Source: an uncultured bacterium
GTDB lineage: Bacteria; Cyanobacteriota; Cyanobacteriia; Cyanobacteriales; Chroococcidiopsidaceae
Direction of reading: 5' to 3'
DNA length: 64,000 nt
NCBI GenBank assembly: GCA_964250845.1
Contig: CAXUIG010000002.1
Span: 13,149 to 77,148 of the forward strand
In this document: positions 30,196 through 46,064 of the stretch, piece by piece
Numbering within the stretch: the first letter of the stretch is position 1
Layout of the letters: the number at the start of each line of letters is the position of its first letter
Notes under the pieces: model-generated
The model's input: the letters and a program-made list of their open reading frames with translations, nothing else
Databases searched by the model: none
What the model was told of the DNA's origin: nothing
Program-made: the position numbers and the translations under genes

Positions 30196-33100
30196 AATTC
30201 TATCTTAATCCTATTGCTGGCTTTGCCATTTACTAGCTTAACCGTCTCATTTTTTTGCTTATTTTCTTGAGTAAATTTATCAGAGTCTAAGCCAATCTCC
30301 TGCACTAGATAATCAGTCAGCAACTCTACAGTAGGATACTCAAAAACTAAATTTAGCGGCAAAGACAATTTTAAACTCCTTTGCAGGTGATTTTTTAAAT
30401 CTAAAGAAGTTAGCGAATCCATTCCTAGCTCGAAAAACCTTTTCTGTAGATCGATTGGTTCTGATTGCCAACCGAGGACTTTAGCCACTACTGAACAAAT
30501 ATGCTCCTGCAAAAGCTTGCGACGTTTGGTAATATTTGTTGTCTTTAATTTTTCAACCAGATCAGATTGCACAACCACAGTTTTTACTGAAGTTTGTAAA
30601 AAATTAGTGAGAAACGACGAAACTGAAGTTGATTTTTCCAAAATCTGCACCCAATTAATAGGCATAACTGCAACTTGAGTAGAGGATTGACACAGTAATT
30701 GATCCAGAGCAACTAATCCCTGTTCTGGGGTAAACGTTCCAATACCCCGCGATTTTGTTTGCTCATCAAGTTGACGCTGTGCGAAGGCTCCTACTTGCGA
30801 CCAAGCTCCCCAGTTGATGCTCAAACCTGCTAGTCCCTGAGCCTGGCGATGATGGGCTAAGGCATCAAGAAAAGCATTAGCTGCTGCATGGTTAGATTGA
30901 CCTGGATTACCAAGTAAAGAACTTATAGAAGAAAACATCACAAAGAAGTCTAAGGGCTGGTTCTGAGTTAAAGTATGCAGATGCCAAGCTCCTTGTACTT
31001 TTGGAGCCAGAACTTTTGCAAAGCGTTGCCAGTTTTGTTGTTGTAGAACGCCATCATCCAAAACACCAACAGAATGAATAATTCCGCGCAGTGGTGGTAA
31101 AGTTTGCTCAATTTCTGAGAGTACTTTTGTGATTTGTTTGACATCAGACACATCCGCCTGAGCAACCTTTACCTGAGCGCCAGCTTGTTCTAACTCTTGA
31201 AGTTGCTCATTAACAGTAACACTTGCAGCACTACGCCCAACTAGCACCAAATGCCTTGCTCCCCGTTGCACCATCCAACGAGATACCAATAAACCCAAAC
31301 CACCCATACCGCCAGTTATCAGGTAGGTACTATCCTCACGGAACGTTAGAGGCTTGCGCGCTGCTGTTTCTATATAATCTTTAGGCTTCCGGTAGCGAGC
31401 TAACCTTGCGACATAACGCAGTTGGTCAGTAAAGGCAACCTGGTCTTCTGTAGTCGGTAACCAAATTTCCTCAAATAGGGCTTGCACCACTCCAGCATCC
31501 GCCTTTGGAGTCAAATCTACCCGCACACAGTTGAGTTCTGGATGTTCGCTAGCAATCACCCTTGCCATTCCCCACAAGCTTGATTGTGCTACTCCCTCTA
31601 GGTTGTTGATTGCCACTGCTCCCTGAGTTACTAACCAGAGACGAGGATGAGCAAATAAATTAGCCCCTGTTAATGCCTGGACTAAATGCAAGGTGCTACC
31701 ACAACTTAGCAAGGATGCCGCAGCTAAATCGGCTGGGGTGAGTTCTGCTGCTTTAAGTGTATCTAAACTCCAGCAATGAACGACACCATACAAAGGCAAG
31801 GGTTTGCTATTGATTGCCTGCAATAACTTGTGATAATGTTGTGGTTTTCTTGGATTAATTTTGAACTTTTGCTCGTCTAATTGTTCATATTCCTCACCAA
31901 CAAATACTAAGGTACAAATTTGTGAGTGAGTATCTAGCTTGGCAGCTAACTGCTGCGCTATCCCTAGCCGATCTGCGAATAACAGCCAATGTCTTGGCTC
32001 AATTTGCAGCGACTCATTTTGTGATGGTGGTAATTGTGCCAGCATTACCATTGCTGGAGATAAAACGCTTTGAGTCTGTTGAGCAGGTGATAGATTGACT
32101 GTGCTTGTAAACCCAGTCTCTTGCAATACTTCTTGCCATTGAGCAGCACTAATCAAGGGATAGTCTGGGCGCAAGTGCAAATCGCTAAATCGCCACCATC
32201 CTGGAGTTAATCCAAAGGTTAAGTCCAGCCAACGCTGACGCTGAGTTGTTTCCAATAAAATTAATATGCCCTGTGGTGCTAATAATTGCTTGGCGTGCTT
32301 GAGGGTTTGTTGCAAATATTGGGTGGCATGCAAGACATTGGCAGCGACAATTACATCATATTGCTGCCTTTGAAATCCTTGGCTAAAGGGGTCCTTTTCA
32401 ATGTCTAATACTTTATATTTTAGAAATGGGAAATCCTGGAATTTTTCCTGTGCTTTTTGGGTAAAAAAGATACCAATATCGCTGAAGTGGTATTGGGTTT
32501 GCTCACAGGACAAAGGTGGTAGCAGGTAAGAGGTTGTTCCACCAGTTCCGGCACCAATTTCCAATATTCTTAATCCCCGTCCAGTTGGTAAATGCTCTAA
32601 AATTGAAACTAGGGCTTGTTGGGCTAAGATATTCATCACCTTTGTCAGTGGCGAATTCTCATATAACTGGGCTGTAGTTGAGTCGTCTTCGGGGAAAAGC
32701 AATTGCAATGGGTCACATTCACCCCGTAGGACTTGGGCTAATGATGGGCCGCAACGTCCTAGTAGAGTGAATTCAGCATTTGCTATTGGATATTGAGTTA
32801 ACAGGGTATTTAATTTAGCTTGCGGATCGCTGATTTCTGGCTGGCGAATGACTTGCCACTCAAAAGCTTTTGCCTCTAACACCCCTACTTCCGCTAACAT
32901 TTCTAGCAGTCGCTTTAATAGCCGTTGGTGTTGGCTGACTATTCCTAACTGGTTAGCGATCGCGGTTGTAGTGAAGCGCTGCCCTAGTTGCAGTTCCCAC
33001 CCCATTGCCGTCAGGGCTTGCAACACATAGTCAATACTGAGTGCTTCTAACTGGCTGACTGCTACCTCATAAACTTTTAGCTGTGGTTCAGCCATCAATT

Positions 33101-36100
33101 GAGAATATTGTGGGTGAAGTTTACGGCTAATTTCTTCAAGTGCTGGCAGGTAATCTGGATACAGTTGCTCATTGCTAAAGCGCACTTGAGGATGCCACTC
33201 TACTTCATACAGCCAATTCTCTAAATAATTTTCTTTGAAGTCTAGCTGGAGACTTTGTAACAAAGTGTTAGGAGTCGCTTTTTTAGCCTCCAAGCCTTTG
33301 ATTTCTGCAATCAACTGTCCGTTAGCGTCAAAAAGTCTGATATCTGCTAATAGCTTGTCTAGATGGGAGTTCTCCGACTGCGACCGTACCGCATGACACC
33401 ATAATTGCTGACTTTGGGGACGTTGGTAAAACCGGAAACTCTCAATTGCGAAGGGTACAAAAGTGTCTTCGCTAGGGAAGAAAGTGCTGATCAGTTGCAA
33501 GCAGGAGTCCACAAGACCCGGATACAACTGATACTCGTATTGACTATCTCCTACGGAAAGCCATTTGAGCTTGGCTAGGGCTTCTCCTTCCCCACACCAG
33601 ATGGAATCAAGCCACTGGAAGCTTGAACCCAATTGAATCTGCCGCTTTTGCAAACTTTGGTAAATTTCGAGTGCAGCTATTTGTTTTTGACAACGTGTCT
33701 TTATCTGTTGGAGAAAGACAGTTTCTAGTCTAGTGTTAACGCCTTTAGAGATTTTCCCTGTGGCATGGACTAGCCACTGACCTACCTGAGTACTACTATT
33801 TGGGACTGTATCAAAGCTGATGAGTTGGAAAGATGCACTACTCTCCTCTGGAGACAGCACCAGCTGCACCGTGCGCACTTTATCTTCGGGGATAACCAGT
33901 GCCTGGGGGAAAACTATATTTTCTAACAGACATGACTCACTGGCGAAAGTCAACCCTGCTGCACCCAATAGTAAGGAGAGATGACAGGCTCCAGGCACAA
34001 CAATTTGGTTATAAACTTGATGATCTACTAAAAACGGTAGGTTTTGGGTACTGAATTCAGACTCAAACAAGATTTCTTTGCTTAGGGGCAGCTGGAGCTT
34101 TTTGTCTAATAATGGGTGCAGTTTTGTAGAGTTTTGTTGCCGTTGATGCCGACGCGGAGTATTCTCAATCCAATAGCGCTGTCGTTGAAACGGATAGGTG
34201 GGTAGTGTGACTTTCTTCCGGAAATAGTCGCGGTCAAACCCTGACCAATCTACTGCCATTCCGCCTACATATAACTCAGCCAAACTAGAAAGCAGTTGTT
34301 GCCATTCTGACACTCCAACACGCAGAGAAGGCAACCACAAACCCACGCTGTCAGGCAAGCACTCACGCCCCATACCCAACAAAATTGGCTTGGGCCCAAC
34401 CTCTAAAAAGACTTCATACCCTTGCTGATGCAATGTCTGCATACTATCGGCAAACCGCACTGTTTGACGGACGTGATTCACCCAGTATTGTGCATTGGTG
34501 ATATTCTCGTCAGCAAGTTGTCCGGTGACATTAGAGACTAATGGGATCTGAGGTTGATTGTAGGTGACATGACTAGCTACTTGTTCAAACTCCTTCAACA
34601 TCGGTGTCATCAATGGGGAATGGAAGGCATGGGATACCTGTAACCGCTTCGTTTTCACCCCCTGGGTTGACACTTGCTGACAAATAGCAGCAATGTCTTC
34701 ACTGGCTCCCGAAATCACTACACTTTCGAGCCCATTGATAGCAGCGATCGCCACTGTATGATCATAAGGAGCGATCGCTTCGAGCACCAGCTCCTCTGAA
34801 GCCATCAGCGAAACCATATCGCCTCCCGATGGCAACTGCTGCATCAACTGTCCTCGATGAAAAATGAGTTTGAGTCCATCTTCCAAGCTAAAAACACCAG
34901 CTATACAAGCAGCAACATATTCGCCTACGCTATGCCCCATCACCACATTTGGTTCAATGCCCCAGGATTTCCACAGTTGATACAGGGCATATTCAAAAGC
35001 AAACAACGCTGGTTGGGTATAGGCGGTTTGGTCCAACAAATATGAGACTTGCTCAAGAGCCTGGGTAGGATAGAGTATCTCTAATAATGAATATTCCAGA
35101 TAAGGGCGGAGGATTTCATCGCACTGCTGCAAAGTTTGGCGGAAGATGGGCTGAGTGTCGTAGATTTGGCGCCCCATGTTGATGTACTGTGAGCCTTGAC
35201 CAGTAAACAAGAAGGCTATCTTTGGTGGCTTTTTGCCTGGTTGACGACTAATTAAGCCAGCGGTGTCTTTCCCAGATGCCAAAGCAGTGAGTTGATCAAC
35301 CAATTGCTCTCTAGAGTCGGCCACAATAGCAAGACGGTAGTCAAAATGTGCTCGCCCACTGTTGGCCGTGTAACAAATATCTGCTAGCGATATCTTCAAA
35401 TCGGAGCTTAAATAAATTTGATATCTTTTTGCCAGTTCCTTTAGAGCCTTCTCAGTTTTCGCCGAAAGTGTCATCAAGTGGCTTGGACGCTCAATTTTCG
35501 TAACAACTATTTCTTCTGGCACTGACGACTCTTCTAGGATTACATGGGCATTAACACCCCCAAAACCAAAGGAACTTACCCCTGCTCGTCTAGGAATATT
35601 TGTTCCTGCTTTTGTCTTTAAATGTTCCCACTCTTTTGTTTCTTTAACTATATAAAATGGACTACCATCTAACTTGATTCGAGGATTTAATTGCTGAAAG
35701 TTATTCATTCCTGGCAATTTTTTATATTTTATTGCCAATAATACTTTTATGATCTCGGCAATACCTGCTGCTGATTCTAAATGTCCAATATTTGTTTTGA
35801 CTGAACCTAATCCACAATAGCTTTCTGCGGTTAGTTCAATACCATAGTGCTGATACAGTTGTGTATATGCTCGTTTTAAAGCATTAATTTCAATTGGGTC
35901 GCCTAATGGCGTACCTGTTCCATGAGCTTCTATATAAGATACTGTATCAGGCGTAATATTTGCCTTTATACATGCAGACCTCACAACTTGCGATTGAGAA
36001 TAAGCATTGGGAGAGGTTAAAGTACGGGCATGACCACCATGATTTATGGCACTCCCTTTAACTATTCCATAAATATAATTTTTATCCTCAACTGCTTTTC

Positions 36101-36902
36101 TAAAAGGTTTTAATAAAATGACACCTGCCCCTTCACCTCGCACATAACCGTCTGCTTTGGCATCAAAGGTTTTGCATTTGCCTTCAGGTGATAACATACC
36201 CAACTTACTGAAAGAGATATAACTAGTCGGTGTACACAATATGCTGACCCCACCAACTAATGCCATCTCACATTCATTTTGATTAAGTGAATTCACTGCT
36301 TGATGAATTGCGACAAGTGAGCTAGAACAAGCAGTATCTATAGGAATACTAGGACCATGAAAGTTGAAAAAATAGGAAATTCGATTTGGAATAATACAAG
36401 TATAGGTACCTGTAGAATTATGTCCTTCAATGGCTTCGCCCTGCTCCTGTAATTCTTTATAATCGAAATTACAAACGCCAATAAAAACACCAACGTTATT
36501 TCCTGATAGTTCTAATGGTGAATATCCAGCATCTTCTAAGCATGACCAGCTCAGTTCTAGCATTAGCCTTTGTTGAGGGTCCATTCGCTTAGCTTCTCGA
36601 GCTGATACCTGGAAAAAATTTGCGTCAAATTTATCTATGTCTTCGATAAATCCTCCCCATTTACTATTACTTGTATTGGGATTATCGATATTTGAAGAAT
36701 AAAAATCATCAAGATTCCATCGTTGTTTAGGTATCTCCGTTACACTATCTATTCCTTTTTCTATATTCACCCAAAATTCATTATAATTATTTGCACCTGG
36801 AAATCTACATGCCATACCAATAATGGCAATTGCCTCTGGCTGAATGCTAACCTTTAACAAATCACTATCAAAATCACCTGTCATGTCAGTTTCATTGTTC
36901 AT
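30192..36902 (-). CDS. Type I polyketide synthase module KS-AT-DH-cMT-KR-ACP. It starts directly with KS, with no loading didomain.
   Basis: ORF track, 2236 aa. KS: DTACSSSLVAIH, EAHGTGT, NIGHLE. AT: GHSVGE and HAFH (malonyl-type). DH: LVDHQVYNQIVVPGA. cMT: LRILEIGAGTGG. KR: TYLITGGMGGLG, LDD motif, but NHAAAN where NYAAAN is expected. ACP: LGMDSLTS. Confidence 0.95.
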   Translation of the reverse strand: MNNETDMTGDFDSDLLKVSIQPEAIAIIGMACRFPGANNYNEFWVNIEKGIDSVTEIPKQRWNLDDFYSSNIDNPNTSNSKWGGFIEDIDKFDANFFQVSAREAKRMDPQQRLMLELSWSCLEDAGYSPLELSGNNVGVFIGVCNFDYKELQEQGEAIEGHNSTGTYTCIIPNRISYFFNFHGPSIPIDTACSSSLVAIHQAVNSLNQNECEMALVGGVSILCTPTSYISFSKLGMLSPEGKCKTFDAKADGYVRGEGAGVILLKPFRKAVEDKNYIYGIVKGSAINHGGHARTLTSPNAYSQSQVVRSACIKANITPDTVSYIEAHGTGTPLGDPIEINALKRAYTQLYQHYGIELTAESYCGLGSVKTNIGHLESAAGIAEIIKVLLAIKYKKLPGMNNFQQLNPRIKLDGSPFYIVKETKEWEHLKTKAGTNIPRRAGVSSFGFGGVNAHVILEESSVPEEIVVTKIERPSHLMTLSAKTEKALKELAKRYQIYLSSDLKISLADICYTANSGRAHFDYRLAIVADSREQLVDQLTALASGKDTAGLISRQPGKKPPKIAFLFTGQGSQYINMGRQIYDTQPIFRQTLQQCDEILRPYLEYSLLEILYPTQALEQVSYLLDQTAYTQPALFAFEYALYQLWKSWGIEPNVVMGHSVGEYVAACIAGVFSLEDGLKLIFHRGQLMQQLPSGGDMVSLMASEELVLEAIAPYDHTVAIAAINGLESVVISGASEDIAAICQQVSTQGVKTKRLQVSHAFHSPLMTPMLKEFEQVASHVTYNQPQIPLVSNVTGQLADENITNAQYWVNHVRQTVRFADSMQTLHQQGYEVFLEVGPKPILLGMGRECLPDSVGLWLPSLRVGVSEWQQLLSSLAELYVGGMAVDWSGFDRDYFRKKVTLPTYPFQRQRYWIENTPRRHQRQQNSTKLHPLLDKKLQLPLSKEILFESEFSTQNLPFLVDHQVYNQIVVPGACHLSLLLGAAGLTFASESCLLENIVFPQALVIPEDKVRTVQLVLSPEESSASFQLISFDTVPNSSTQVGQWLVHATGKISKGVNTRLETVFLQQIKTRCQKQIAALEIYQSLQKRQIQLGSSFQWLDSIWCGEGEALAKLKWLSVGDSQYEYQLYPGLVDSCLQLISTFFPSEDTFVPFAIESFRFYQRPQSQQLWCHAVRSQSENSHLDKLLADIRLFDANGQLIAEIKGLEAKKATPNTLLQSLQLDFKENYLENWLYEVEWHPQVRFSNEQLYPDYLPALEEISRKLHPQYSQLMAEPQLKVYEVAVSQLEALSIDYVLQALTAMGWELQLGQRFTTTAIANQLGIVSQHQRLLKRLLEMLAEVGVLEAKAFEWQVIRQPEISDPQAKLNTLLTQYPIANAEFTLLGRCGPSLAQVLRGECDPLQLLFPEDDSTTAQLYENSPLTKVMNILAQQALVSILEHLPTGRGLRILEIGAGTGGTTSYLLPPLSCEQTQYHFSDIGIFFTQKAQEKFQDFPFLKYKVLDIEKDPFSQGFQRQQYDVIVAANVLHATQYLQQTLKHAKQLLAPQGILILLETTQRQRWLDLTFGLTPGWWRFSDLHLRPDYPLISAAQWQEVLQETGFTSTVNLSPAQQTQSVLSPAMVMLAQLPPSQNESLQIEPRHWLLFADRLGIAQQLAAKLDTHSQICTLVFVGEEYEQLDEQKFKINPRKPQHYHKLLQAINSKPLPLYGVVHCWSLDTLKAAELTPADLAAASLLSCGSTLHLVQALTGANLFAHPRLWLVTQGAVAINNLEGVAQSSLWGMARVIASEHPELNCVRVDLTPKADAGVVQALFEEIWLPTTEDQVAFTDQLRYVARLARYRKPKDYIETAARKPLTFREDSTYLITGGMGGLGLLVSRWMVQRGARHLVLVGRSAASVTVNEQLQELEQAGAQVKVAQADVSDVKQITKVLSEIEQTLPPLRGIIHSVGVLDDGVLQQQNWQRFAKVLAPKVQGAWHLHTLTQNQPLDFFVMFSSISSLLGNPGQSNHAAANAFLDALAHHRQAQGLAGLSINWGAWSQVGAFAQRQLDEQTKSRGIGTFTPEQGLVALDQLLCQSSTQVAVMPINWVQILEKSTSVSSFLTNFLQTSVKTVVVQSDLVEKLKTTNITKRRKLLQEHICSVVAKVLGWQSEPIDLQKRFFELGMDSLTSLDLKNHLQRSLKLSLPLNLVFEYPTVELLTDYLVQEIGLDSDKFTQENKQKNETVKLVNGKASNRIKIEL

Positions 36903-36925
36903 ACTTCAACTCGCTAAACACTGCT

Positions 36926-37102
36926 TTAATTATTTAACTGCATAAGCTTTTGAATATTCCTGATTCGTCTAAAGTGAGTCGGGTTTGCATGAAACAGGCA
37001 AAACTTTTCGTAGGCACTCACCCACAGCCTCTCCAGGTGCTCAATCGGGAACTGTCTCAAGGTTTCTGGGTTAGATAATTGGGGCTGTGCGGCAAGGTTC
37101 AT
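36926..37102 (-). CDS. Hypothetical 58-aa protein immediately upstream of the first PKS gene and co-oriented with it.
   Basis: My translation: MNLAAQPQLSNPETLRQFPIEHLERLWVSAYEKFCLFHANPTHFRRIRNIQKLMQLNN, then a stop. It falls below the 60-aa cutoff of the ORF track. The stop lies 23 nt before the PKS ATG. I recognise no motif. Confidence 0.3.
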   Translation of the reverse strand: MNLAAQPQLSNPETLRQFPIEHLERLWVSAYEKFCLFHANPTHFRRIRNIQKLMQLNN

Positions 37103-37248
37103 TTACTTATGATACTAGAAAAAATTATGTGATCAAGTCCCTGACTTAAATCCTTACAATACAATAAACTCATTGAAATTAAAAAACTACGCTGAACTTA
37201 AGTTTACAAATCATCTCACCTTCATCACCAAAATGCAATATAAATTAA

Positions 37249-37309
37249 GACAGTTAAGTGGACAGTTAAGACAGTTAAGCAGATAGTTAAAATATTTAAA
37301 ACAGTTAAT
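37249..37309 (-). promoter_or_regulatory. Array of CTTAACTGT(C) motifs, read on the minus strand, upstream of the PKS-NRPS operon. Candidate transcription-factor binding array.
   Basis: The plus strand shows gacagttaag at 37249-37258 and 37261-37270, and acagttaag at 37271-37279. Degenerate copies are agatagttaa and acagttaat (37301-37309). The same motif, in the same orientation relative to transcription, occurs at 42980-42995 upstream of the LeuB-like gene and at 39654-39680. Confidence 0.45.
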
Positions 37310-37338
37310 CAAGACTAATTAGGTAACTGTAACTAACA

Positions 37339-37362
37339 TAAAAAAAGAGGCATACAGCCTCT
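37339..37362 (-). terminator. Putative intrinsic terminator after the small membrane-protein gene.
   Basis: The minus strand reads agaggc-tgtat-gcctct followed by a run of seven T. This is a 6-bp stem and 5-nt loop, about 95 nt downstream of the stop at 37458. Confidence 0.45.
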
Positions 37363-37457
37363 AGAGCCCAAAAAAGGGCTATCCTGGGATTTTAGTGAAA
37401 GTTTATCTATTACTAGGAAAACCCAAGATAATCACAAGGTGAAAGCCCTGATTTTGC

Positions 37458-37829
37458 TCAGCCATCAGATGTTTTTAGCGCCTTAAACTCAGAATAAAGC
37501 TGTATTTCAGCTTTAAGTTTGTGTTTTAGATCGTCTGAAATAGCCAAACTGTCAATTTCGCTCAGGAGACTTGCGCTTGGTTCAGTTTTGCGGCGCTCCG
37601 CATACACTCCAGAGAGAATAGCGTCAATTCCGAATCGAGCTAAAGCATCGCTAACGAGCGTCATAAGACCTATTACGGTTATACCACCTATGATTCCAAA
37701 AGGTCCACCAAACATAGCAATTGCTATTGGTATAGCCAAATAAACTGCCAACCCTCTAGTGGCTAATGTAATAACAAGTATTACGCCACTTAACCCCAGA
37801 GATGCAATTCTTTTAATTACGTCATCCAT
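37458..37829 (-). CDS. Small membrane protein (two predicted glycine-rich hydrophobic helices plus an amphipathic C-terminal tail). Paralogue of 46119..46520.
   Basis: ORF track, 123 aa. It aligns along its length with the 133-aa ORF at 46119. Shared blocks: MDxxxKxIAxLGLxGVILVIT, GGPFGIxGGI, LMTLV, ALAxxGIxxIL, YAER, TE, LKxKLK. Confidence 0.8.
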   Translation of the reverse strand: MDDVIKRIASLGLSGVILVITLATRGLAVYLAIPIAIAMFGGPFGIIGGITVIGLMTLVSDALARFGIDAILSGVYAERRKTEPSASLLSEIDSLAISDDLKHKLKAEIQLYSEFKALKTSDG

Positions 37830-37957
37830 TACAGTACCTGTTAGTTAGTTAAAATTTTGCCTTTTTTACTTTATCCTACATTTCGGTTGTTGTCATTATT
37901 TATTTGCCATCAAAACATCAGCTGTACAAGTGACACAAGTAAGCGCCCCTGGATGAA

Positions 37958-39523
37958 TTATCCAGAGACTGCAGCTAACTGTGCTTCAAGCGTTTTCACT
38001 TTATCTGACAAATCCTTGACAGCGTTTACCAGGGTGAAAGTAAGCTCTGAAAGGTCTGTCATTAAAAGGTCTGACAACTCGCCCTTTTGTGTTTGTAAAA
38101 CCATGCTGGGGGCAATTTTTCGCAACTCCTGGGCGACAAAACCTACATACTGCTTACCTACTTCACTGCCCTTGGCATCAAACTCCGGCTTATAACGGAA
38201 TTTCACTGGTGACAGTTGCTCAATAAGTTCTAATCCCTGCTTGTAAGGCGTAATATTTGTTTTTGCTCTAGCGTCTGAAAGCGCCGCAAAGCTGCCACCA
38301 CCCGTCTTGGAAGCGTTGCCGGAAATACTTAAGGTCTGGTCGGGGTTTGAGGTATTGATTCCCACTCTCTGTGTTGATGAAAATATATTTATCGCTTCCC
38401 AACCATTATTAACGTTACCTGGTACATAAACCGTAATTACATCACCGGGGTTTGAATCAGGGCGGTTATAACCCCAACGAGTCAACTTAGATTTGGAGTT
38501 ATCTATTGACCAACTCGGACCCCAAAGATCAATCCCGCCCTCGGCGTTAAAAGCAGCAATTCCCTTAGGACACAACCTAAATGGGTCTTTACCAGCTACG
38601 TTAAAGTAAAGCTTGTCATCGTTATAGTTTTGCTCTATTTTAGTTTTTGTGGTGGTGCCGTCAGTATCACAAAACTCAAACCTATTAACAACGGTTGTAG
38701 CATCTTTACGGCTGATTCTAATCCCCTCATTGCCTGCTGCCGTGATCTGAAGCTTTTGTTGAGGGCTATTATTTCCTACCCCAAATTTCCCATCACCTGA
38801 AAACGTCAAGTTGAATCCAGCGCTGGGAATATCTGTATTATGCAGAAGATTTTGACCTAATTCAATAACTGAACCGCTCGTTAACAATCCATTTCTAGCT
38901 GTTGGGCTAATGTTGACAGTGGAATTTGTTACCGACAGAGTTAAATCGCCGGTAGCAGGGTCAAAAGCAAGCGTTTGTTCCTCTGCCGCCTGTGCAATTG
39001 CTGGTATGGTTGATAAATCGATAGTGTTGCCATTGCTGATACCTAGCACGTTCTCGGTGAGCGTGAGAGTTTGAACATCTCTACCCTGTGGAAACGCCGC
39101 TGACAGGTCTACAGTTGCGTTTTTATCGTTAACTGTAGATGTAAGCGTTGTTCCGGTCAACGTCATCGTGTGAGTTGTCGCGTCGTTCAGCGCCTGTGGT
39201 GTGATTGCAGATTGCTGTACTCCTGGTGGCACTGGTACTGGTACGAGCAGCCCTAATTCTTGCCCTGGAACAGGTGCTATCGTTTCGACATTAATCGAGG
39301 AGGTCTTGTTCTTAAAGTCGTCGCCCACCCAGCTAACGTCGCTGGTAAAGGTCTTACTCGTGCCCTCACATCCAGTCGCTTCGTAGACGGTGACCTTTAT
39401 GCCTGCTGGCACTTTTAACGAACTCAACTTATCGTTGCCGAAAATGTCATACTTGCCCGGCTCAAGTTCTTGGTAGGCTCCTTGGAAGTTAGTGCCTGCA
39501 TAGATCATAACTTTGTCTGACAT
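37958..39523 (-). CDS. Tail-fibre-like protein: N-terminal beta/gamma-crystallin-type domain, Thr/Asn-rich fibre region, and C-terminal peptidase-S74 intramolecular chaperone domain.
   Basis: ORF track, 521 aa. N-terminus: MIYAGTNFQGAYQELEPGKYD...DKLSSLKV (Greek-key-like). C-terminus: LSDARAKTNITPY...LSPVKFRYK...GFVAQELRKIAP...coiled coil. This matches the SDxRxK auto-cleavage motif and layout of S74 chaperone domains. Confidence 0.8.
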   Translation of the reverse strand: MSDKVMIYAGTNFQGAYQELEPGKYDIFGNDKLSSLKVPAGIKVTVYEATGCEGTSKTFTSDVSWVGDDFKNKTSSINVETIAPVPGQELGLLVPVPVPPGVQQSAITPQALNDATTHTMTLTGTTLTSTVNDKNATVDLSAAFPQGRDVQTLTLTENVLGISNGNTIDLSTIPAIAQAAEEQTLAFDPATGDLTLSVTNSTVNISPTARNGLLTSGSVIELGQNLLHNTDIPSAGFNLTFSGDGKFGVGNNSPQQKLQITAAGNEGIRISRKDATTVVNRFEFCDTDGTTTKTKIEQNYNDDKLYFNVAGKDPFRLCPKGIAAFNAEGGIDLWGPSWSIDNSKSKLTRWGYNRPDSNPGDVITVYVPGNVNNGWEAINIFSSTQRVGINTSNPDQTLSISGNASKTGGGSFAALSDARAKTNITPYKQGLELIEQLSPVKFRYKPEFDAKGSEVGKQYVGFVAQELRKIAPSMVLQTQKGELSDLLMTDLSELTFTLVNAVKDLSDKVKTLEAQLAAVSG

Positions 39524-39653
39524 AGTTTTAACTCCTTTATTTACTGGACTAGAAACCTGGGACAGCCATGTTAAACTGGCTCAAAAGTTAAGGTACAAAT
39601 ACAAACTTTACCTGCCCTAACTTTATTAAGTCAAGACATTTACCACCTTCTTT

Positions 39654-39855
39654 CTTAACTGTCTTAACTGTCTTAACTGTCTCAATTTTATCCTTTAATT
39701 TTTTCCTTAAGTGTCTTATGTGGTATTGACTTTTTCCTGTAATAAGGAAAATATTAATATGAAATATTGTTAAATACCTTAGCTCGACTTTGTTCATTTG
39801 CCAAATTCTCAACTAAGGAAGCAATATGAGAAAATGCTCTCAGTGCTCAAATCTA
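39654..39855 (+). repeat. Copy 1 of a duplicated promoter-like region (CTTAACTGT x3 plus about 170 bp), homologous to 42980..43220.
   Basis: cttaactgt occurs three times in tandem at 39654-39680. Blocks shared in the same order with copy 2: ccttaagtgtcttat, attgacttt, gaaaatatt, attgttaaa, ttagctcgacttt, agcaata.gagaaaatgc.ctcagtg.tcaaatc. Confidence 0.7.
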
Positions 39856-39980
39856 TTTGATCAATGTCATCATTGAAGATAAAGATTTTGCTAAGTTTAT
39901 TAAAACGTTATCACTTTACGGCGTTGGTCTTGTCTTGGTAACGCTCTTGGGGTTGTGTTGCAATTGGATAACACCACCTG

Positions 39981-40531
39981 TTATTTGACCTGTAGCCAAT
40001 TGAAGATTTGTCCAATTGTGAGTTGCAGATTCGAGGCGAAGTCAGGAACACTTAGCACATCATTTAGCTCCTCCTCCAGTTCTGGCTGCTGTCCGGGAGG
40101 ATAGAGCAGGATGGAGCGTTCCGCTGGCTCGATAAGCCATCCCATGAGAGAGCCATGCTTGAGACTGTGCAGAATTTTGCGAGTTGTTTTAGTAGAGGAT
40201 TGTTCTGGACTGAGGATTTCAATGATCCAGTCTGGATGAGATTCAAAGGCGTTGGCAATCGTGCCGCCGGGGTTAGTGGGGATGCGCTCCCAGGTAAAGA
40301 CAGCGATATCGAGGACGATTGAGCGTCCTCCAAAGGTACAGCGTAGTTCTGGAAGAGCAAGAGCAATACGCAGATCTTCTACTACTGCGTTGATAGCAGG
40401 ATGCGGCTGTGTTCTCCTTGTGGCATTGGTTTTTGAATAATCTGTCCATCAATGAATTCCCTGGCAGGTTTAGTTTCGGGCAGGAGCAGAAACTCATTTA
40501 GGGTGATGGAATTAAGAGAAGTTTGTACCAT
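39981..40531 (-). pseudogene. Uma2-family (DUF820, PD-(D/E)XK-like) endonuclease gene disrupted by an internal out-of-frame deletion.
   Basis: From ATG 40531: MVQTSLNSITLNEFLLLPETKPAREFIDGQIIQKPMPQGEHSRIL, then a stop at 40381-40383. A shifted frame continues from about 40393: INAVVEDLRIALALPELRCTFGGRSIVLDIAVFTWERIP...HPDWIIEILSPEQSSTKTTRKILHSLKHGSLMGWLIEP...IFNWLQVK, with its stop at 39981-39983. Confidence 0.75.
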
Positions 40532-40734
40532 CCGTCATTACTCCCAGTCGTGGACTGTGTCCTTATTCTAACTAGGGACGAGCGTCGGCATTGTCAAGTT
40601 AACGGAACGAATCTGTCAGAACTGGATTCAAACGGAAGAGTACAAATACTGGTTCTGGTATGCTAATAGCCATAAAGCAGCATCCGTTGGCAAACCATGA
40701 AGTCTTTTGTTACCCTTACCAGGGGTGAACTGAT

Positions 40735-41476
40735 TCATTCTTCGTCGGGGTTAATACCTGCTGCCCGTAAGCGCTCTGCCAACTGCTCGGCTCTTTGCTG
40801 CTCCTGTTTAGCTATTTCCTCCGGCAATAAGACTAATCTCTCTTGGCGATCGTAGAATCGTAACCACTGGCAAGTTCCCGTTGGCGGCTCGCGTCGTATG
40901 CATCCTGACCATGTCCCTAGCCATAGCTCTAAGCTTTCACACCACAACCAACCATGCTCGTTTGCTATCAGAGGTTGATATTGCTGTGCAGCGTCTAGGT
41001 GCCAGCCCTCCAACGACTCCGGGTCAAACGGATCGTAAATACAGTACTCTCTGGTGCGAAATGTTCGTTCGTAGAGCCGCTTTCTGATTCCTTTGTCTAT
41101 CTTTGCCGTGCTGGGCGACATCAGCTCGACAATCACGTCAGGATACCGTCCTTCCTCCTCCCAGATTACCCAACCCTGGCGCTCGCGACTGCCATCTACA
41201 TCCAGAGCCACAAAAAAATCTGGTCCTTTGAAAATCTCGGTTCATTGCTTGAGAGCGGCTGTAGTAGACGAACATATTGCCACCGACGAAAAAGTCTGTT
41301 CGCTCCGCTAGGGCTGTCAGGACCGAATCAATCAAGACATTCATTGCAATCCGATGGCGATTCGTATCCATTGGCTCTCCATCATCAAAAACTAAATCGG
41401 TTGGAGGCTCAGGCGGCTCCCAAATTTCTGCTTGGAGAGATAACACTTCCTGCTCGGCAGTTACTTTAGCGGTCAT
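40735..41476 (-). pseudogene. Uma2-family endonuclease gene with a +1 frameshift, or a sequencing error in a short homopolymer.
   Basis: Track ORFs 41138..41476 (…DLVFDDGEPMDTNRHRIAMNVLI…VYYSRSQAMNRDF) and 40735..41211 (ALDVDGSRERQGWVIWEEEGRYPDVIVELMSPST…) are the two halves of one protein. The frames switch at gattttcaaagg (about 41231-41236). Removing one T restores NRDFKGPDFFVALDV. Confidence 0.75.
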
Positions 41477-41591
41477 GGCTTTGTTAGAGGGTAGAGTGCC
41501 GATTCACTTTTAAGCGAGACTGAGACCGGAAAGCCATCCGATGGGTACAATCATCCGTTCAGTTGCAGTCATTATAGCGCTGAAAGCGTAA

Positions 41592-41632
41592 CAAAAGTGC
41601 AGGCAAATCTTTGGTCGAAGTGTTTGGGGCGT
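41592..41632 (+). repeat. Left arm of a perfect 41-nt inverted repeat flanking the intact Uma2 gene.
   Basis: caaaagtgcaggcaaatctttggtcgaagtgtttggggcgt. Its exact reverse complement is at 42594-42634, and weaker similarity continues for about 15 nt more. Confidence 0.85.
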
Positions 41633-41751
41633 TTTTACAGGGAATTTTGTAATGATTCAGGTGGGGGGTATTTTTACTAGCAATCCACTTCGATTTCGTT
41701 GCTGTTAAAGTGGCAAAAGCGTGGATTTAAGTACAATAGCTAGAGGATCAG

Positions 41752-41883
41752 AAGCCAGCTCTCACCTCAATCTTGAATAGCGAATTCTGACACTTTCCTT
41801 CCATATCACTACTAAGGACGACAGCCAGAGTATAACAAGCCAGCTCTCACCTCAATCTCCCAAGCGCGAGTTCTGACACTTTC
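41752..41883 (+). repeat. Two direct copies of a 46-47-nt unit just upstream of the intact Uma2 gene.
   Basis: The units span 41752-41797 and 41837-41883. Both read aagccagctctcacctcaatct, then an 11-12 nt variable stretch, then ttctgacactttc. Confidence 0.85.
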
Positions 41884-41921
41884 GGCTAAATTAAAGTCAG
41901 CCATTTGTTGAGTATAAGTCT

Positions 41922-42470
41922 ATGACTTCAGCGATTCAAACACTTACGCTAGAAGCCTTCCTGCATCTCCCAAACATTGAGGAATCTCCTGCTTGGGAAT
42001 TCATTGATGGAGAGATGTTACAAAAACCGATGCCCACAACTCATCACAGCATCTTGCAAAAGCGATTGGTTGCTGCAATTGACCAAGCACAGAGCCAATA
42101 TGAAGCGTTTCCTGAGTTGCGTTGTGTGCTGAGTCAACAGTCGGTAGTCCCCGATGTGGCTGTGATTCTAAACCAGCGTGTACCTTCCGAAAATAGTCCA
42201 GTGCAAGGTGCGCCTGATTGGATTATCGAGATTCTGTCGCCTGAGCAGAGTACGACCAAGTTGATTGCGAAGATTCAAATCTGTCTGACGGAAGGCGCGC
42301 AACTAGGCTGGCTGCTCGATTCTACAGAACGGGTGATAATGGTGTTCTGGAGCGATCGCCCTCTCGCCATCATCTCTGGAGAGACGGTTGTGCCTGTCCT
42401 TCCAGGAGTAAACCTCCAGATGAGGGCAAAACAAATTTTTGACTGGTTACAGCCACGACGAGCGAAATGA
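41922..42470 (+). CDS. Uma2-family (DUF820) putative endonuclease, intact.
   Basis: ORF track, 182 aa. Family hallmarks: EFIDGEMLQKPMPTTHHS, PELRCVL, PDVAV, APDWIIEILSPEQSTTKL, GAQLGWLLD. Confidence 0.85.
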   Translation: MTSAIQTLTLEAFLHLPNIEESPAWEFIDGEMLQKPMPTTHHSILQKRLVAAIDQAQSQYEAFPELRCVLSQQSVVPDVAVILNQRVPSENSPVQGAPDWIIEILSPEQSTTKLIAKIQICLTEGAQLGWLLDSTERVIMVFWSDRPLAIISGETVVPVLPGVNLQMRAKQIFDWLQPRRAK

Positions 42471-42473
42471 TGC

Positions 42474-42859
42474 CACATAGATCAGAAATTGGTGTCTGAG
42501 TAGACTGACCTCACCCCGATGCGGGAACCAAATCCGACAATCGCCCCACTGTGCAGAGATTCAGCGCTTCCATCCAAGGAATACCTCGTAAAGACGCCCC
42601 AAACACTTCGACCAAAGATTTGCCTGCACTTTTGGCATCTGGCAGGAAGGAACGTAGGAACTGCACAAACGCTACCCTATTCTCCGCTTGCACGCCTATG
42701 CAGGTAGGTTTCCCGCTCCGAACCAAAATAGATCACTGCAGTCCGTTGCTGGTTTTTAAGTTGAGATGCTGTTGCCACTGTCACCACTCCTGATTTCTCA
42801 GTAGAAGTTTACGCAAAAAAACCTCATTCTGCGCCAGACACCAATTTCTGATCTATGTG
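42474..42859. repeat. 386-bp segment bounded by perfect 25-bp terminal inverted repeats (MITE-like). It contains the right arm of the 41-nt inverted repeat.
   Basis: cacatagatcagaaattggtgtctg at 42474-42498 and its exact reverse complement at 42835-42859. I saw no obvious target-site duplication. Confidence 0.6.
42594..42634 (-). repeat. Right arm of the perfect 41-nt inverted repeat.
   Basis: Exact reverse complement of 41592-41632. Confidence 0.85.
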
Positions 42860-42979
42860 AGAAATTAATGAGACTAAATCGCAATAAATTGGAGTATTAT
42901 CTACGAGGTATTCGGGCTATGGAGCTGGTTTTATCTACTTTTTAGCTTTCATGTCGCCCCCGCAGCTATAGCATCCTCT

Positions 42980-43220
42980 CTTAACTGTCTTAACTTTATC
43001 CTTAAGTGTCTTATCTGGGATTGACTTTATTCTGCAATCATGAAAATATTTATTGGCTCTATTGTTAAACACCGATTAGCTCGACTTTATTTATGATCAG
43101 CGTATAATTTATCTTTGGCAAATGGAGTGGAGTCAGTAGTTTCCAATATCTGTTTGAAAAACAACTGCAAAATCCCCCACCCAGAAAGCAATACGAGAAA
43201 ATGCGCTCAGTGATCAAATC
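42980..43220 (+). promoter_or_regulatory. Copy 2 of the duplicated region. Likely promoter/leader of the LeuB-like/LeuDC-like operon, with CTTAACTGT motifs and a TTGACT box.
   Basis: cttaactgtcttaact at 42980-42995 and cttaagtgtc at 43001-43010. TTGACT at 43020-43025 is followed after about 17-18 nt by aaatatt. The same TTGACT-spacer-aaatatt arrangement is conserved in copy 1 (39727 onward). Confidence 0.4.
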
Positions 43221-43279
43221 CCTTGCTGCTGAGCAAGAACGCTATTTTACAGCCAACGAGGTGTTGGAGTTATGGGAAA

Positions 43280-44362
43280 ATGGGGTCTTTAAGTAATCCA
43301 TCATATCGGATCGTCGCCATTCCTGGGGAAGGGATTGGGCCAGAAGTTGTGGAAGCTTCCTTAAAAATTCTGCAACAGGTGGCTAAACTTGAAGGATTTA
43401 CCCTGCAGGTAGACTATGGCTGGCTCGGCGCAACTGCCTTCAAAAAACTGGGTAGTTACTTCCCTCAAGCTACCGCCCAACTGTGCGAAACAGCCGATGG
43501 GATTGTATTTGGTGCGATTACCCAAGGCGGACTGCTAGAACTACGAAAGCACTTCGACTTTTTTTGCAATCTTCGCCCAATCCGTAGCGTTAAAAGTCTC
43601 CTGAATAAATCTAGCCTTCGACCAGAGAAAGTTCAAGGACTCGATATTCTGATTATTCGAGAACTGGTCAGTGGGATCTATTTTGGACCATCTGGACGGT
43701 CTTGCGATCGCCAAGGAACTTACGGATACCATACGATGCGCTATTACGATGAGGAGATTCGTCGGATCGCTCGCGCGGCGTTGCAGCAAGCCCAACGTCG
43801 CCGAGGATTACTCACCGTAGCCCACAAAGAAAATGCCTTGCCCCATTTGCCCTGGACTTGTCTAGTGCAAGAAGAAGCCACACAGTTTCCAGGCGTTGTC
43901 GTCGAGCCAATGCTGGTGGATAACTTAGCCATGCAAATGGTTTTCAATCCGCAGCGGTTTGATGTGATTTTGGCGGGAAATCTGTTTGGAGATATTCTTA
44001 GCGATATTGGCGGTGCATTAGTTGGCTCAATCGGCTTATTAGGATCAGCCAGTCTTAACGCTAATGGATTTGGGCTGTACGAAGCCATTCACGGCACAGC
44101 CCCAGACATTGCCGGAAAGGGAATTGCTAATCCCCTCGGAACTCTCGGAGCTTGTATTTTAATGCTTCAGCAATGGGGAGAGGCACAAGCCGCCCAACGG
44201 ATTATTGAAGCACAAGACCGAATTTTATCCCAGGGATACCGGACAGCCGATTTGTCTCCCCAAGGAAAAGAAATTTTTGTCAACACTGAAACCTTAGTTG
44301 ACCTTTTGCTTGATGAAGTTTCAACCGTGCAACATTCTGCACTAGGAGTGATTCATGAGTAA
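43280..44362 (+). CDS. hphB: Isopropylmalate/isocitrate dehydrogenase-family enzyme (LeuB-like). Candidate HphB of homophenylalanine/homotyrosine biosynthesis.
   Basis: The track ORF starts at TTG 43223. I prefer ATG 43280, which has GGAG 11-14 nt upstream and gives MGSLSNPSYRIVAIPGEGIGPEV. Motifs: NLFGDILSD and HGTAPDIAGKGIANP. It is adjacent to an anabaenopeptin-type NRPS, as reported for Nostoc punctiforme hph genes (from memory). Confidence 0.65.
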   Translation: MGSLSNPSYRIVAIPGEGIGPEVVEASLKILQQVAKLEGFTLQVDYGWLGATAFKKLGSYFPQATAQLCETADGIVFGAITQGGLLELRKHFDFFCNLRPIRSVKSLLNKSSLRPEKVQGLDILIIRELVSGIYFGPSGRSCDRQGTYGYHTMRYYDEEIRRIARAALQQAQRRRGLLTVAHKENALPHLPWTCLVQEEATQFPGVVVEPMLVDNLAMQMVFNPQRFDVILAGNLFGDILSDIGGALVGSIGLLGSASLNANGFGLYEAIHGTAPDIAGKGIANPLGTLGACILMLQQWGEAQAAQRIIEAQDRILSQGYRTADLSPQGKEIFVNTETLVDLLLDEVSTVQHSALGVIHE

Positions 44363-46064
44363 CGCAAATAACGTTTTGCACCTTGGAGATGATATCAATA
44401 CCGATGATATTATTCCTGCCCAGCGGGCAACGACAGATGACCCTGAGCACTTAAAACAGAATGCTTTAGAATATCTCATCGGTCCAGGCGAACTGCTAAA
44501 ATACGATGTGATTGAAGCCGGAGAAAATTTCGGCTGTGGTTCCAGCCGAGAAGTTGCCCCCATTGCCCTCAAAGCCGCCGGAATTCAGAAGATTCGTGCG
44601 CGATCGTTTGCCGAAATTTTTTATCGTAATAGCATCAATATTGGACTGTCCCTAGAAATTCTGGGGGAAAAACAGCAGAACCCAGTAGTTGATGCGATCG
44701 CAGCAGCAGGCGGGCTGATGCCTTTTAATCAGATGCGTCGTCGCTACGAGATCACCATTCCTCCCAGCCTCACCCCTCCACGACCCATGACTTTAGTGGA
44801 AAAACTCTTGGCCCTCGCCTCCGGAAATTCCTACGTCCAGCCTGGAGAGGTGGTTTTTGCCCAGGTCGATTTAGCCTTATCCCATGATGCAGTGGCCGGT
44901 CCTGTGGCCAAAATATTTTATCAACAGTATGGAGAAGGGGCAAAGTTGTGGGACTCCCAACGGGTAGTTTTGGTAGCAGATCACTTTATCCAAGTCAATG
45001 ACATCCGTGCTGATCACAAAGCCCATCTCATGTATGAACAGATGGTTCAGTTTGCCCAAGACCAAGGATGCCACTTATTTGATGTGGTTTCCCCAGGTGA
45101 AGCAGCAGGCATCTGCCACGTTTTACTGCCAGAACAAGGGTTTATCCGACCAGGAATGGTGATTGCCGGTACAGATTCTCATACTTGCACCTACGGGGCA
45201 TTGGGAGCCTTTTCTACAGGCGTAGGAACGACGGATATGGCCAATATTTTTGCCATGGGGGATATGTGGATTCGTGTTCCCCCAACCCTAGTATTCGAGT
45301 TGTCTGGAACCCTGCCTCCCCAAATCAGTGCCAAAGATATTATCCTGTTTATCCTGGGGCAAATCGGCTGTGGTGGTGCAACCAGTAGGGTGATGGAGTT
45401 TAAAGGGTCGATCATCGAGCAATTACCCCTTGATGAACGGATGACGCTAGCCAATATGGCAATCGAGTGTGGTGCGATGTGTGGCTTGATTGCTCCTGAT
45501 CAGGTGACCCGTAAGTATGTAAAAAACAGCACATCACAATGGTTTGAAGAGATTATCGCCGATTCTGATGCTGAGTACGAAAGGATTTATCAATTTGACC
45601 TGAGTGATTTAGAACCGCAAGTCGCACGCCCCCCAAAACCGGATCAGGTAGTTGCCATTAGTCAGTTAGGGGACATTCCTATTACCAAAGCCTTTATTGG
45701 CTCTTGTACGGGGGGCAAACTCTACGATCTAGCTCAGGCAGCGGAAGTTTTGAAGGATCGCCAACTGGCAGACGGCGTAAACTTGTTTATTGTACCTGCT
45801 TCGGTTGAGATTCGCCAACAAGCCCAAGCGTTAGGCTATCTCGACATTTTTGAACGAGCAGGGGCACAGATTCTGAAGTCAGGTTGTGGGGCTTGTATCA
45901 ACTCTGGACTTGGGGTTTTGGCAAAAGAAGAAACAGGGGTTTATGCAACCAATCGCAATTTTAAAGGACGCAGCGGCGATCCAACCGGCAAAAACTATTT
46001 GGCCTCCCCAAGAACGGTGGCCATCTCAGCCGTAAATGGAAAAATTAGTCATGATCTCGATTAA
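44355..46064 (+). CDS. hphCD: Fused aconitase-superfamily isomerase: a LeuD-like small-subunit domain at the N-terminus and a LeuC-like large-subunit domain at the C-terminus. Candidate HphCD.
   Basis: ORF track, 569 aa. N-terminus: GDDINTDDIIPA, ENFGCGSSREVAP. C-terminus: GTDSHTCTYGALGAFSTGVGTTDMA, IGSCTGGK, NRNFKGRSG. The start overlaps the upstream stop by 8 nt (ATGAGTAA). Confidence 0.7.
   Translation: MSNANNVLHLGDDINTDDIIPAQRATTDDPEHLKQNALEYLIGPGELLKYDVIEAGENFGCGSSREVAPIALKAAGIQKIRARSFAEIFYRNSINIGLSLEILGEKQQNPVVDAIAAAGGLMPFNQMRRRYEITIPPSLTPPRPMTLVEKLLALASGNSYVQPGEVVFAQVDLALSHDAVAGPVAKIFYQQYGEGAKLWDSQRVVLVADHFIQVNDIRADHKAHLMYEQMVQFAQDQGCHLFDVVSPGEAAGICHVLLPEQGFIRPGMVIAGTDSHTCTYGALGAFSTGVGTTDMANIFAMGDMWIRVPPTLVFELSGTLPPQISAKDIILFILGQIGCGGATSRVMEFKGSIIEQLPLDERMTLANMAIECGAMCGLIAPDQVTRKYVKNSTSQWFEEIIADSDAEYERIYQFDLSDLEPQVARPPKPDQVVAISQLGDIPITKAFIGSCTGGKLYDLAQAAEVLKDRQLADGVNLFIVPASVEIRQQAQALGYLDIFERAGAQILKSGCGACINSGLGVLAKEETGVYATNRNFKGRSGDPTGKNYLASPRTVAISAVNGKISHDLD

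Follow-up and report, generated by a model that had tools for sequence, protein, structure and literature searches.

Tandem nonanucleotide arrays as the predicted operator of a promoter module upstream of natural-product and geosmin genes in Nostocales and a Chroococcidiopsidaceae genome

Tandem arrays of the nonanucleotide CTTAACTGT lie upstream of two biosynthetic operons in a 64,000-nucleotide stretch of contig CAXUIG010000002.1 (contig C2; hereafter the stretch is called the window) from an uncultured cyanobacterium of the family Chroococcidiopsidaceae, and their comparative analysis indicates that they are probably the operator part of a conserved promoter module. In the proposed module, a proximal repeat dimer begins 20 nt before the -35 hexamer and covers about -55 to -38, while further dimers lie upstream, contiguous or at 21, ~31, 42, 52 and 63 bp, and would thus occupy the same helix face. 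One module (site A) would drive a 58-amino acid (aa) open reading frame (ORF) together with a polyketide synthase/non-ribosomal peptide synthetase (PKS/NRPS) operon, and a second (site C) would drive an HphB/LeuDC/NRPS operon through a leader that carries a truncated hphA. A sequence-specific DNA-binding protein is predicted to fill the dimers cooperatively and to touch RNA polymerase at the adjacent -35; if one protein does so, all array-bearing promoters would be switched together. Activation seems the most likely mode of action, given the weak -35 and -10 boxes and a site that directly adjoins the -35. The comparison supports a regulon that includes geosmin synthase in this genome and that spans the Nostocales.

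Tandem arrays, not single repeats, stand out from chance

An exact scan of the window recovered seven copies of the nonanucleotide, all inside three clusters and none elsewhere, in agreement with the original prediction made from the sequence of the window:

37249 to 37279, minus strand: array A, reading CTTAACTGT CTTAACTGT cca CTTAACTGT CTTAAT, with exact copies at 37250-37258, 37262-37270 and 37271-37279
39654 to 39680, plus strand: array B, three perfect tandem CTTAACTGT copies, as first reported
42980 to 43015, plus strand: array C, two 21-bp units reading CTTAACTGT CTTAACTTT atc CTTAAGTGT CTTATC

Array A likewise has two units of 21 bp, both made up of a tandem dimer and 3 nt (Tandem Repeats Finder period 21, 2.2 copies), and the second half of its proximal dimer is degenerate. 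Array C holds one exact copy (42980-42988), followed by CTTAACTTT, 3 nt and CTTAAGTGT. A degenerate CTTAAGTGTC had been noted 3' of both plus-strand arrays and is indeed present at 39706 (B) and 43001 (C). Read toward their operons, A and C are built alike, with a pair of 21-bp units ahead of a -35 hexamer, and the orientation to the downstream operon that had been proposed for both is identical. The distances given earlier were also accurate: 147 nt separate the end of array A from the ATG of the 58-aa ORF at 37102 (predicted, about 150), and ~285 nt separate array C from the LeuB/HphB-like ATG at 43280 (predicted, about 290). Sites B and C are paralogous, with ~81% identity across ~200 nt.

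We treat the tandem dimer, CTTAACTGTCTTAACTGTC(C), as the working unit of 18-19 bp; CTTAACTGTCTTAACTGTCC is the repeat sequence in probe form, and CTTAACTGTCYTAACTGTC is the strict 19-mer dimer with which genome collections were scanned, overlapping matches being counted per genome. The single nonanucleotide is unremarkable. At one mismatch or fewer it occurs 21 times in the window against 18.3 expected, which is chance level, and its exact form occurs 56 times in the whole 6.8 Mb assembly against 58 expected, with no enrichment. In contrast, the chance expectation of an 18-nt tandem dimer is ~2e-6 per window, and the genome-wide scan located period-9 tandem arrays at only five places in the assembly (A, B, C and two on contig C22) against ~0.01 expected. 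Chance therefore does not account for the tandem arrays. No known RNA family was detected by an Rfam scan of positions 36500-43600 at E <= 0.1.

Arrays face gene starts at a fixed distance from the -35

Geometry and gene neighbourhoods were assessed over 240 array loci, among which those from related species are not independent. Orientation was evaluated for the 189 arrays whose downstream neighbour is an ORF of at least 100 aa, and 163 of these (86%) face the start of a co-oriented gene at a median distance of 285 nt (p = 2e-25), while the upstream side is near random (104 divergent versus 80 same-direction genes). A dispersed repeat lacking positional bias toward promoters had been named at the outset as the observation that would speak against co-regulation; the repeat is dispersed, yet its promoter bias is very strong.

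The distance to the promoter is equally regular. CCTTG directly follows the last strict dimer in 78 of 221 unique arrays, which places the TTG of the -35 at offset 20, and -10-like hexamers (GAGTAT, GAAAAT, GAATAT) lie 17 nt further on behind these arrays. Within arrays, the unit-to-unit spacing is 9 in 555 cases, 12 in 44 and 11 in 3. Spacings between non-contiguous dimers cluster at 21, 30-33, 40-43, 50-54 and 63 bp, and 35 of the 40 deviate by no more than 1.5 bp from a multiple of 10.5, which is helical phase (the loci being partly non-independent). Two kinds of promoter share this arrangement. In the more common type, the repeats and the offset are held in common and the -35/-10 boxes and flanks vary; in the other, ATTGCATTTTnTTGATAAAGCTGAGAT(G/T)ATT lies behind the arrays in 27 loci, of which site A is one. 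The first large co-oriented gene in the latter class encodes an NRPS in 9 loci, geosmin synthase followed by encapsulins in 2, ABC_membrane_2 transporters in 2, and a LamG-patatin protein in 4, followed where the locus is long enough by HphA, HphB, LeuDC and gz133, a small glycine-zipper protein. Taken together, this is the geometry expected of an operator that a protein would occupy in helical register with RNA polymerase, and not of neutral slippage.

Promoters A and C have orthologues and site B is a decayed duplicate

The features that surround the three arrays are as follows:

37346 to 37362, minus strand: intrinsic terminator of the upstream 123-aa gene
37280 to 37309, minus strand: AT-rich piece ATTAACTGTTTTAAATATTTTAACTATCTG immediately upstream of array A, with conserved counterparts ahead of arrays in Nostoc loci
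37233 to 37238, minus strand: promoter A -35, TTGCAT as read from the sequence, 20 nt after the proximal dimer start
37210 to 37215, minus strand: promoter A -10, GATGAT, 17-nt spacer, preceded by TGA (extended -10; TGn)
36926 to 37102, minus strand: 58-aa ORF, the first behind promoter A
30192 to 36902, minus strand: PKS with KS-AT-DH-cMT-KR-ACP organization, first large gene of promoter A
39605 to 39634, minus strand: separate sigma-70-like promoter of a 521-aa fibre-like gene, TTGACT-18-TAAAGT, divergent from site B
39706 to 39755, plus strand: site B proximal dimer CTTAAGTGTCTTATG and core promoter, with -35 TTGACT (39726-39731), 18-nt spacer and -10 AATATT (39750-39755)
39826 to 39991, plus strand: pseudogene remnant behind promoter B, a shortened hphA 3' end fused to an internal ABC_membrane_2 transporter fragment
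43021 to 43050, plus strand: promoter C, with -35 TTGACT (offset 20 from the proximal dimer), 18-nt spacer and -10 AATATT
43114 to 43296, plus strand: 3' remnant of hphA (isopropylmalate-synthase-like), ~60 codons, now in the HphB operon leader
43280 to 46064, plus strand: HphB-like dehydrogenase (Iso_dh) and fused LeuD-LeuC-like isomerase, the first intact genes behind promoter C

Promoters A and C both have array-bearing orthologues. The first 86 nt of module A are 85-91% identical to loci L045, L062, L060 and L085, and the array is conserved before the Hph operon in Nostoc loci L062, L068 and L246 as well as before the PKS orthologue in the metagenome locus L247. The terminator upstream of array A indicates that promoter A is shielded from read-through. 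The 58-aa ORF returned no homologues, and the idea that it is a remnant of a known gene was dropped on that result. Behind promoter C, NRPS genes follow the HphB-like and fused LeuD-LeuC-like genes, and the HphB and LeuDC proteins are 86-88% identical to those of array-bearing Nostoc operons. The hphA remnant in the leader shares 92-93% DNA identity with Nostoc loci. Contig C22 carries an intact copy (39520-40400, minus strand) that is 90% identical to the remnant and is followed by an ABC_membrane_2 transporter. Because hphA is truncated at site C, the homo-amino-acid pathway of the cluster may depend on a synthase encoded elsewhere. A 31-aa small ORF once considered upstream of HphB is the 3' end of this truncated hphA.

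Site B retains the 20-nt offset from proximal dimer start to -35, and sequences related to its remnant lie at 5024-5119 of contig C2 and 39116-39211 of contig C22. The remnant marks the left border of an island of Uma2 genes and is followed by Uma2 pseudogenes; with the hphA/transporter fusion, these dead genes identify B as a decayed duplicate of the C unit. What had been listed as a 44-aa membrane-peptide ORF behind B is a fragment of the ABC transporter. Of the three array sites originally described, A and C thus do precede operons, whereas B has no intact co-oriented gene.

The 521-aa fibre-like protein encoded beside site B contains a Peptidase_S74 chaperone domain. Its gene in the window has its own promoter, with array B upstream in inverted orientation, and a homologue (55% identical) in metagenome locus L186 (Ga0209902_100036) is array-driven and divergent from an AAA_35 gene.

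Biosynthetic genes recur behind the arrays

Among the first co-oriented ORFs of 99 genome loci, Condensation, AMP-binding and terpene synthase domains were each found 8 times, TubC_N, S8 protease (PatA/G) and TerB 4 times each, Tle1-like proteins 3 times and MvdD twice. By clustering, NRPS/PKS, GeoA, MvdD, PatG or Hph genes are present in 38 of 119 genome loci and 22 of 116 metagenome loci. The suggestion that a shared array co-regulates the two operons of the window gains comparative support from the orientation, the 20-nt offset and the recurrence before orthologous and unrelated natural-product operons of Nostocales, while the set of array-bearing promoters proves to be far wider than two operons.

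GeoA occurs in 14 loci. Thirteen of these genes are close homologues (78-85% identical), of which 12 are preceded by a co-oriented array 240-700 nt upstream of the ATG. In the genome under study, two arrays on contig C22 (26982-26999 and 27394-27411) are situated between the geosmin synthase gene and a gene for a helix-turn-helix (HTH) AAA_35 protein, pointing toward geosmin synthase, which is followed by two cNMP-domain encapsulin genes. One of the two arrays is 20 nt from the AAA_35 start codon. In array C22a, the dimer start precedes the -35 by 20 nt, as at A, B and C, and a comparison of the DNA upstream of geosmin synthase with Nostocales revealed no conservation beyond the array and core promoter. 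The leader that separates array C22a from the ATG of geosmin synthase (~650 nt; C22:26330-27000) contains two hairpin-forming inserts, with GGGGGGG and with ccagacattaagctctggccg / cggccagagcttaatgtccgg arms, and a short piece that resembles the start of a 139-aa array-driven Scytonema gene (L036).

Several further neighbourhoods were recorded. In Nostoc sp. NIES-4103 (L251, G061:C1:1977942-1985460), an array and a canonical CC-TTGCAT promoter precede a pair of EgtB-like (FGE-sulfatase) and EgtD-like (Methyltransf_33) genes, which are ergothioneine biosynthesis genes. In L062, L068, L246, L032 and L260, the LamG-patatin gene lies directly after the array promoter of the Nostoc Hph operon; its product matches an NCBIfam model of CBASS-type phospholipases below cut-off, and the gene is absent from the Hph operon of the window. 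IS605-family OrfB (TnpB-like) genes adjoin arrays in 8 loci, including L052, L017 and L159, and the TTAAC-rich repeats might be preferred IS605 insertion targets.

The arrays are largely a Nostocales feature

No tandem dimer was present in 60 relatives of this genome, which suggested a private repeat; scans of genome and metagenome collections overturned that idea. The strict 19-mer was found at >=120 loci in the species-genome collection and at >=120 in the metagenome collection, and the named matches are nearly all from Nostocales (Nostoc, Scytonema, Calothrix, Desmonostoc, Brasilonema, Fischerella, Westiellopsis and others). Five non-cyanobacterial matches among those listed are at chance level. 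The pattern was found in 10 of 401 evenly sampled cyanobacterial genomes, all of 5.3-8.6 Mb, and a reversed control pattern gave 0 matches in every one of 411 genomes. Ten array-bearing genomes hold 2-102 strict matches, with 4-102 in eight Nostocales and 2 each in two non-Nostocales; examples are:

Calothrix NIES-2100: 4 strict matches, 2 distinct loci
Nostocales HT-58-2: 9 strict matches, 7 distinct loci
Nostoc NIES-4103: 36 strict matches, 13 distinct loci
Scytonema NIES-4073: 76 strict matches, about 22 distinct loci
Scytonema HK-05: 102 strict matches

Array loci number roughly 7-25 in the Nostocales genomes counted (Calothrix NIES-2100 has 2), and the copy number per array is highly variable, from 2 to >12.

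An HTH-AAA_35 ATPase is the best candidate for the binding protein

Of the non-biosynthetic neighbours of the arrays, AAA_35 proteins recur most often (21 of 240 loci). The copy on contig C22 encodes 481 aa, matches Pfam AAA_35 at 4.6e-133 and conserves the GKS residues. Its full-length homologues next to Nostocales arrays are 57-67% identical, while relatives of this genome provide full-length AAA_35 matches of <=39% or matches to the AAA domain only of <=51%. The arrays are mostly not positioned as the promoter of the AAA_35 gene itself, which fits a regulator gene that sits beside its target rather than a mere target.

Co-occurrence was assessed in a sample of 46 genomes, with orthologues defined by the N-terminal 135 residues at E <= 1e-28. 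A strong orthologue of this putative N-terminal HTH domain is encoded in 17 of 19 array-positive genomes compared with 5 of 27 large genomes that are negative by the strict 19-mer. All five of these strict-negative carriers have relaxed arrays, four of them clearly above the control pattern, and in 15 large genomes without the orthologue relaxed arrays are at control level. An array lies no more than 6 kb from the orthologue in 12 of 23 carrier genomes (22 searched plus the window's own): within 4 kb in G061, G062, G063, G065, G102, G111, G215, G337, G455 and the window's own genome, and within 6 kb in G259 and G389. The correlation between arrays and regulator is confounded by phylogeny; the co-localization is not. 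In L247, the PKS promoter has a short HTH-AAA_35 gene as its divergent neighbour.

The N-domain of the AAA_35 protein is highly conserved, and its AlphaFold model comprises a putative HTH N-domain (helices 41-48 and 52-59), an AAA+ core and a C-terminal winged helix. Foldseek matches to the model include archaeal AAA+ ATPases, ORC/Cdc6, NLR/Avs STAND proteins and DnaA, with low TM-scores of 0.23-0.30. The short HTH-AAA_35 ATPase, which is ORC/STAND-like, is thus the best candidate for the protein that binds the dimers, an assignment that we regard as plausible yet tentative. In the proposed mechanism, a head-to-tail oligomer would assemble on tandem CTTAACTGT, with one HTH per 9 bp and successive dimers in helical phase. 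From the site that abuts the -35, it would turn on silent NRPS/PKS, microviridin and cyanobactin clusters, geosmin synthase and lipase/stress genes together.

A conserved Nostocales gene module was also apparent around the candidate. It comprises DAHP synthase, PAM68 (DUF3464), the short HTH-AAA_35, an array-driven small gene convergent on it and a long HTH-AAA_35-WD40 gene (~1200 aa). The module is found in L017, L020, L115, L118, L169, L206 and L227, with the array on the opposite strand. In some of these loci no ORF separates the array from the short gene, and the array is directed into the 3' end of that gene; an antisense transcript is one possible consequence.

The cluster appears to have been acquired from a Nostocales-like donor

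The PKS of the window is 88% identical over its full length (2236 aa) to that of L247, which has the same promoter and array. This locus (metagenome contig QQTW01000063.1, 36655-49614) is an orthologous cluster, and the position of its short AAA_35 gene is taken in the window by a glycine-zipper gene, the fibre gene and the Uma2 island. The cluster, the geosmin locus and the candidate regulator all look imported from a Nostocales-like donor, and recent horizontal transfer is the simplest reading for the cluster of the window. Contig C22 is typical in composition (guanine plus cytosine (GC) content 47.3%), and an amidase encoded on it is closest to a same-family relative (84% versus 75-79% in Nostocales). 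Repeats in the Uma2 island were considered as proof that contig C2 belongs to the host; they are only diverged paralogues at 65-85% identity and are not decisive.

Discussion

One oriented element recurs, in a set geometry, ahead of genes for peptides, polyketides, geosmin and lipases, which suggests that these genes share a regulator not yet described. A number of observations weigh against the operator reading, the nomination of HTH-AAA_35 or the transfer of the cluster. About 14% of arrays (26 of 189) face a 3' end, 9% (22 of 245) lie within ORFs, and arrays can expand to 12 or more copies in the manner of a microsatellite. Site B keeps three perfect copies though its downstream genes are dead, so perfect copies are no proof of present selection. 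The 130-bp module may be conserved in its entirety because a promoter cassette was copied, and not through selection on a protein site, and loci from related species do not count as independent. The 13 array loci of Nostoc NIES-4103 are heterogeneous and not solely biosynthetic clusters (lipases, amidohydrolase, EgtB/EgtD, methyltransferase, META-domain gene, AAA_35 with a major facilitator superfamily (MFS) gene, GH31, and microviridin with LamG-patatin). For the candidate regulator, HTH matches in the N-domain are weak (HTH_11, Sigma70_r4, MarR and HTH_3 over residues 34-61, E ~0.01-0.1) and the structural model is of moderate quality (mean predicted local distance difference test score 66.7; N-domain 72-88). 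Finally, the GC content of contig C2 is 44.7% compared with a genome mean of 48.2% (z = -2.5), and it is possible that C2 is mis-binned, such that the window itself comes from another organism.

Several of these points would be accommodated by a promoter cassette that has no dedicated factor, in which a ~130-bp module spreads by recombination and the repeats are slippage-prone filler or an UP-like or structural element; a module held in common would then be no sign of common regulation. The conservation of the entire module, spacer sequence included, before unrelated genes would be explained in this way, as would the very variable copy number (2 to >12) and a site B that is perfect though functionless for any co-oriented gene. 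Such an account is nevertheless unlikely, since the commoner promoter type has only the repeats and the offset in common while boxes and flanks differ, since helical phasing and a fixed offset are predicted by protein binding and not by slippage, and since the arrays co-occur and tightly co-localize with one HTH-ATPase gene.

We give little weight to the idea that the arrays are inert relics in this particular genome, left by horizontal transfer of the cluster and the geosmin locus or present because C2 derives from a co-binned Nostoc-like organism. It draws on the absence of arrays from all 60 relatives, the 92-93% DNA identity to Nostoc loci, the atypical GC content of C2, the truncated hphA and the decayed site B. 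Inert relics do not, however, account for a candidate regulator that this assembly encodes intact, 20 nt away from an array and on a contig of typical composition whose amidase is nearest to a same-family relative, nor for the canonical offset and intact downstream operons retained at A and C.

The arrays recall the sites of OmpR/PhoB-type response regulators, for which direct repeats abutting the -35 are the classical arrangement, and such a regulator might bind them in place of HTH-AAA_35. The repeat resembles the Pho box of cyanobacteria, PyTTAAPyPy(T/A), and also the core, CTGTC, of its Escherichia coli counterpart: the CTTAAC core and the position of the direct repeats beside the promoter are alike, CTTAACT agrees with 7 of 8 positions of the former, and phospholipase-type genes (patatin, LCAT, Tle1-like) are frequent targets. 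The arrays, however, are contiguous at a period of 9 bp (555 spacings) and not at the 8 + 3 = 11 bp (3 spacings) of a Pho box, and neither the recurrent neighbours in the 240 loci nor the 13 loci of NIES-4103 include pst/pho genes, so that the arrays do not mark phosphate-uptake genes. Period and target genes together led us to reject the Pho-box reading as such. A response regulator of this family is improbable more generally, as no response-regulator gene recurs and a single Response_reg match was found among the 99 first ORFs. It is more improbable still that the arrays are ends or targets of a mobile element or site-specific recombination system: IS605-type OrfB genes adjoin 8 of 240 array loci and B and C flank the 3.3-kb Uma2 island as direct repeats, but no gene for a recombinase or transposase is shared by more than 3% of loci, the surroundings of A, B and C showed neither terminal inverted repeats nor target duplications, and orientation toward gene starts with a fixed -35 offset is unexpected for element ends.

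A conserved operator bound by a common protein remains the reading that we favour, and it has parallels in known systems. SARP regulators (Streptomyces antibiotic regulatory proteins) bind direct repeats of 7-bp heptamers at an 11-bp period through an OmpR-type winged helix joined to a bacterial transcriptional activation domain (BTAD), and AfsR combines these with a STAND-type ATPase. As in SARP/AfsR control in Streptomyces, the repeats described here lie on one strand and abut or overlap the -35 of biosynthetic promoters, several operons share them, and the regulator genes of that system are often cluster-situated, as is the AAA_35 gene in L247. Unlike SARP sites, the arrays are contiguous at 9 bp, belong to cyanobacteria and also precede non-biosynthetic targets, and the candidate protein pairs an N-terminal HTH with AAA_35. 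No SARP-like gene was found in the window or among recurrent neighbours, a statement that does not extend to the whole genome, where no search aimed at SARP/BTAD was made. MalT, a STAND activator, and DnaA are ATP-dependent oligomerizing AAA+/STAND proteins that act on short asymmetric repeats near the -35; DnaA boxes are also 9-mers, and DnaA itself is among the proteins that the AAA_35 model resembles, along with ORC/Cdc6 and NLR/Avs STAND proteins. The candidate differs from MalT and DnaA in its N-terminal HTH and in the strictly tandem repeats that it is predicted to bind. Heterocystous cyanobacteria also contain short tandemly repeated repetitive (STRR) heptamers in intergenic regions, and like these the arrays are dispersed, intergenic, short, variable in copy number and found in Nostocales. 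They differ from STRR sequences in being 9 nt rather than 7, in forming a single family oriented to gene starts, and in their fixed -35 offset and helical phasing. The literature searched yielded no published description of the repeat sequence or its short forms, only chance primer matches, and nothing relevant on regulation of Nostoc clusters, geosmin promoters or PF14516/AAA_35.

To our knowledge, the control of natural-product clusters and of geosmin in cyanobacteria is largely unknown. Most such clusters are silent in culture, and geosmin is the main earthy off-flavour of drinking water. The short HTH-AAA_35 protein (~475 aa) could possibly be the master switch of an undescribed Nostocales regulon that travels with its promoter module, and module and regulator would then have moved jointly by horizontal transfer, including into this non-Nostocales genome. 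One cis-element with a defined geometry and a named candidate regulator makes the control of these clusters experimentally approachable, with the array providing both a handle for activating silent clusters and a sequence tag by which co-regulated accessory genes could be located in genomes.

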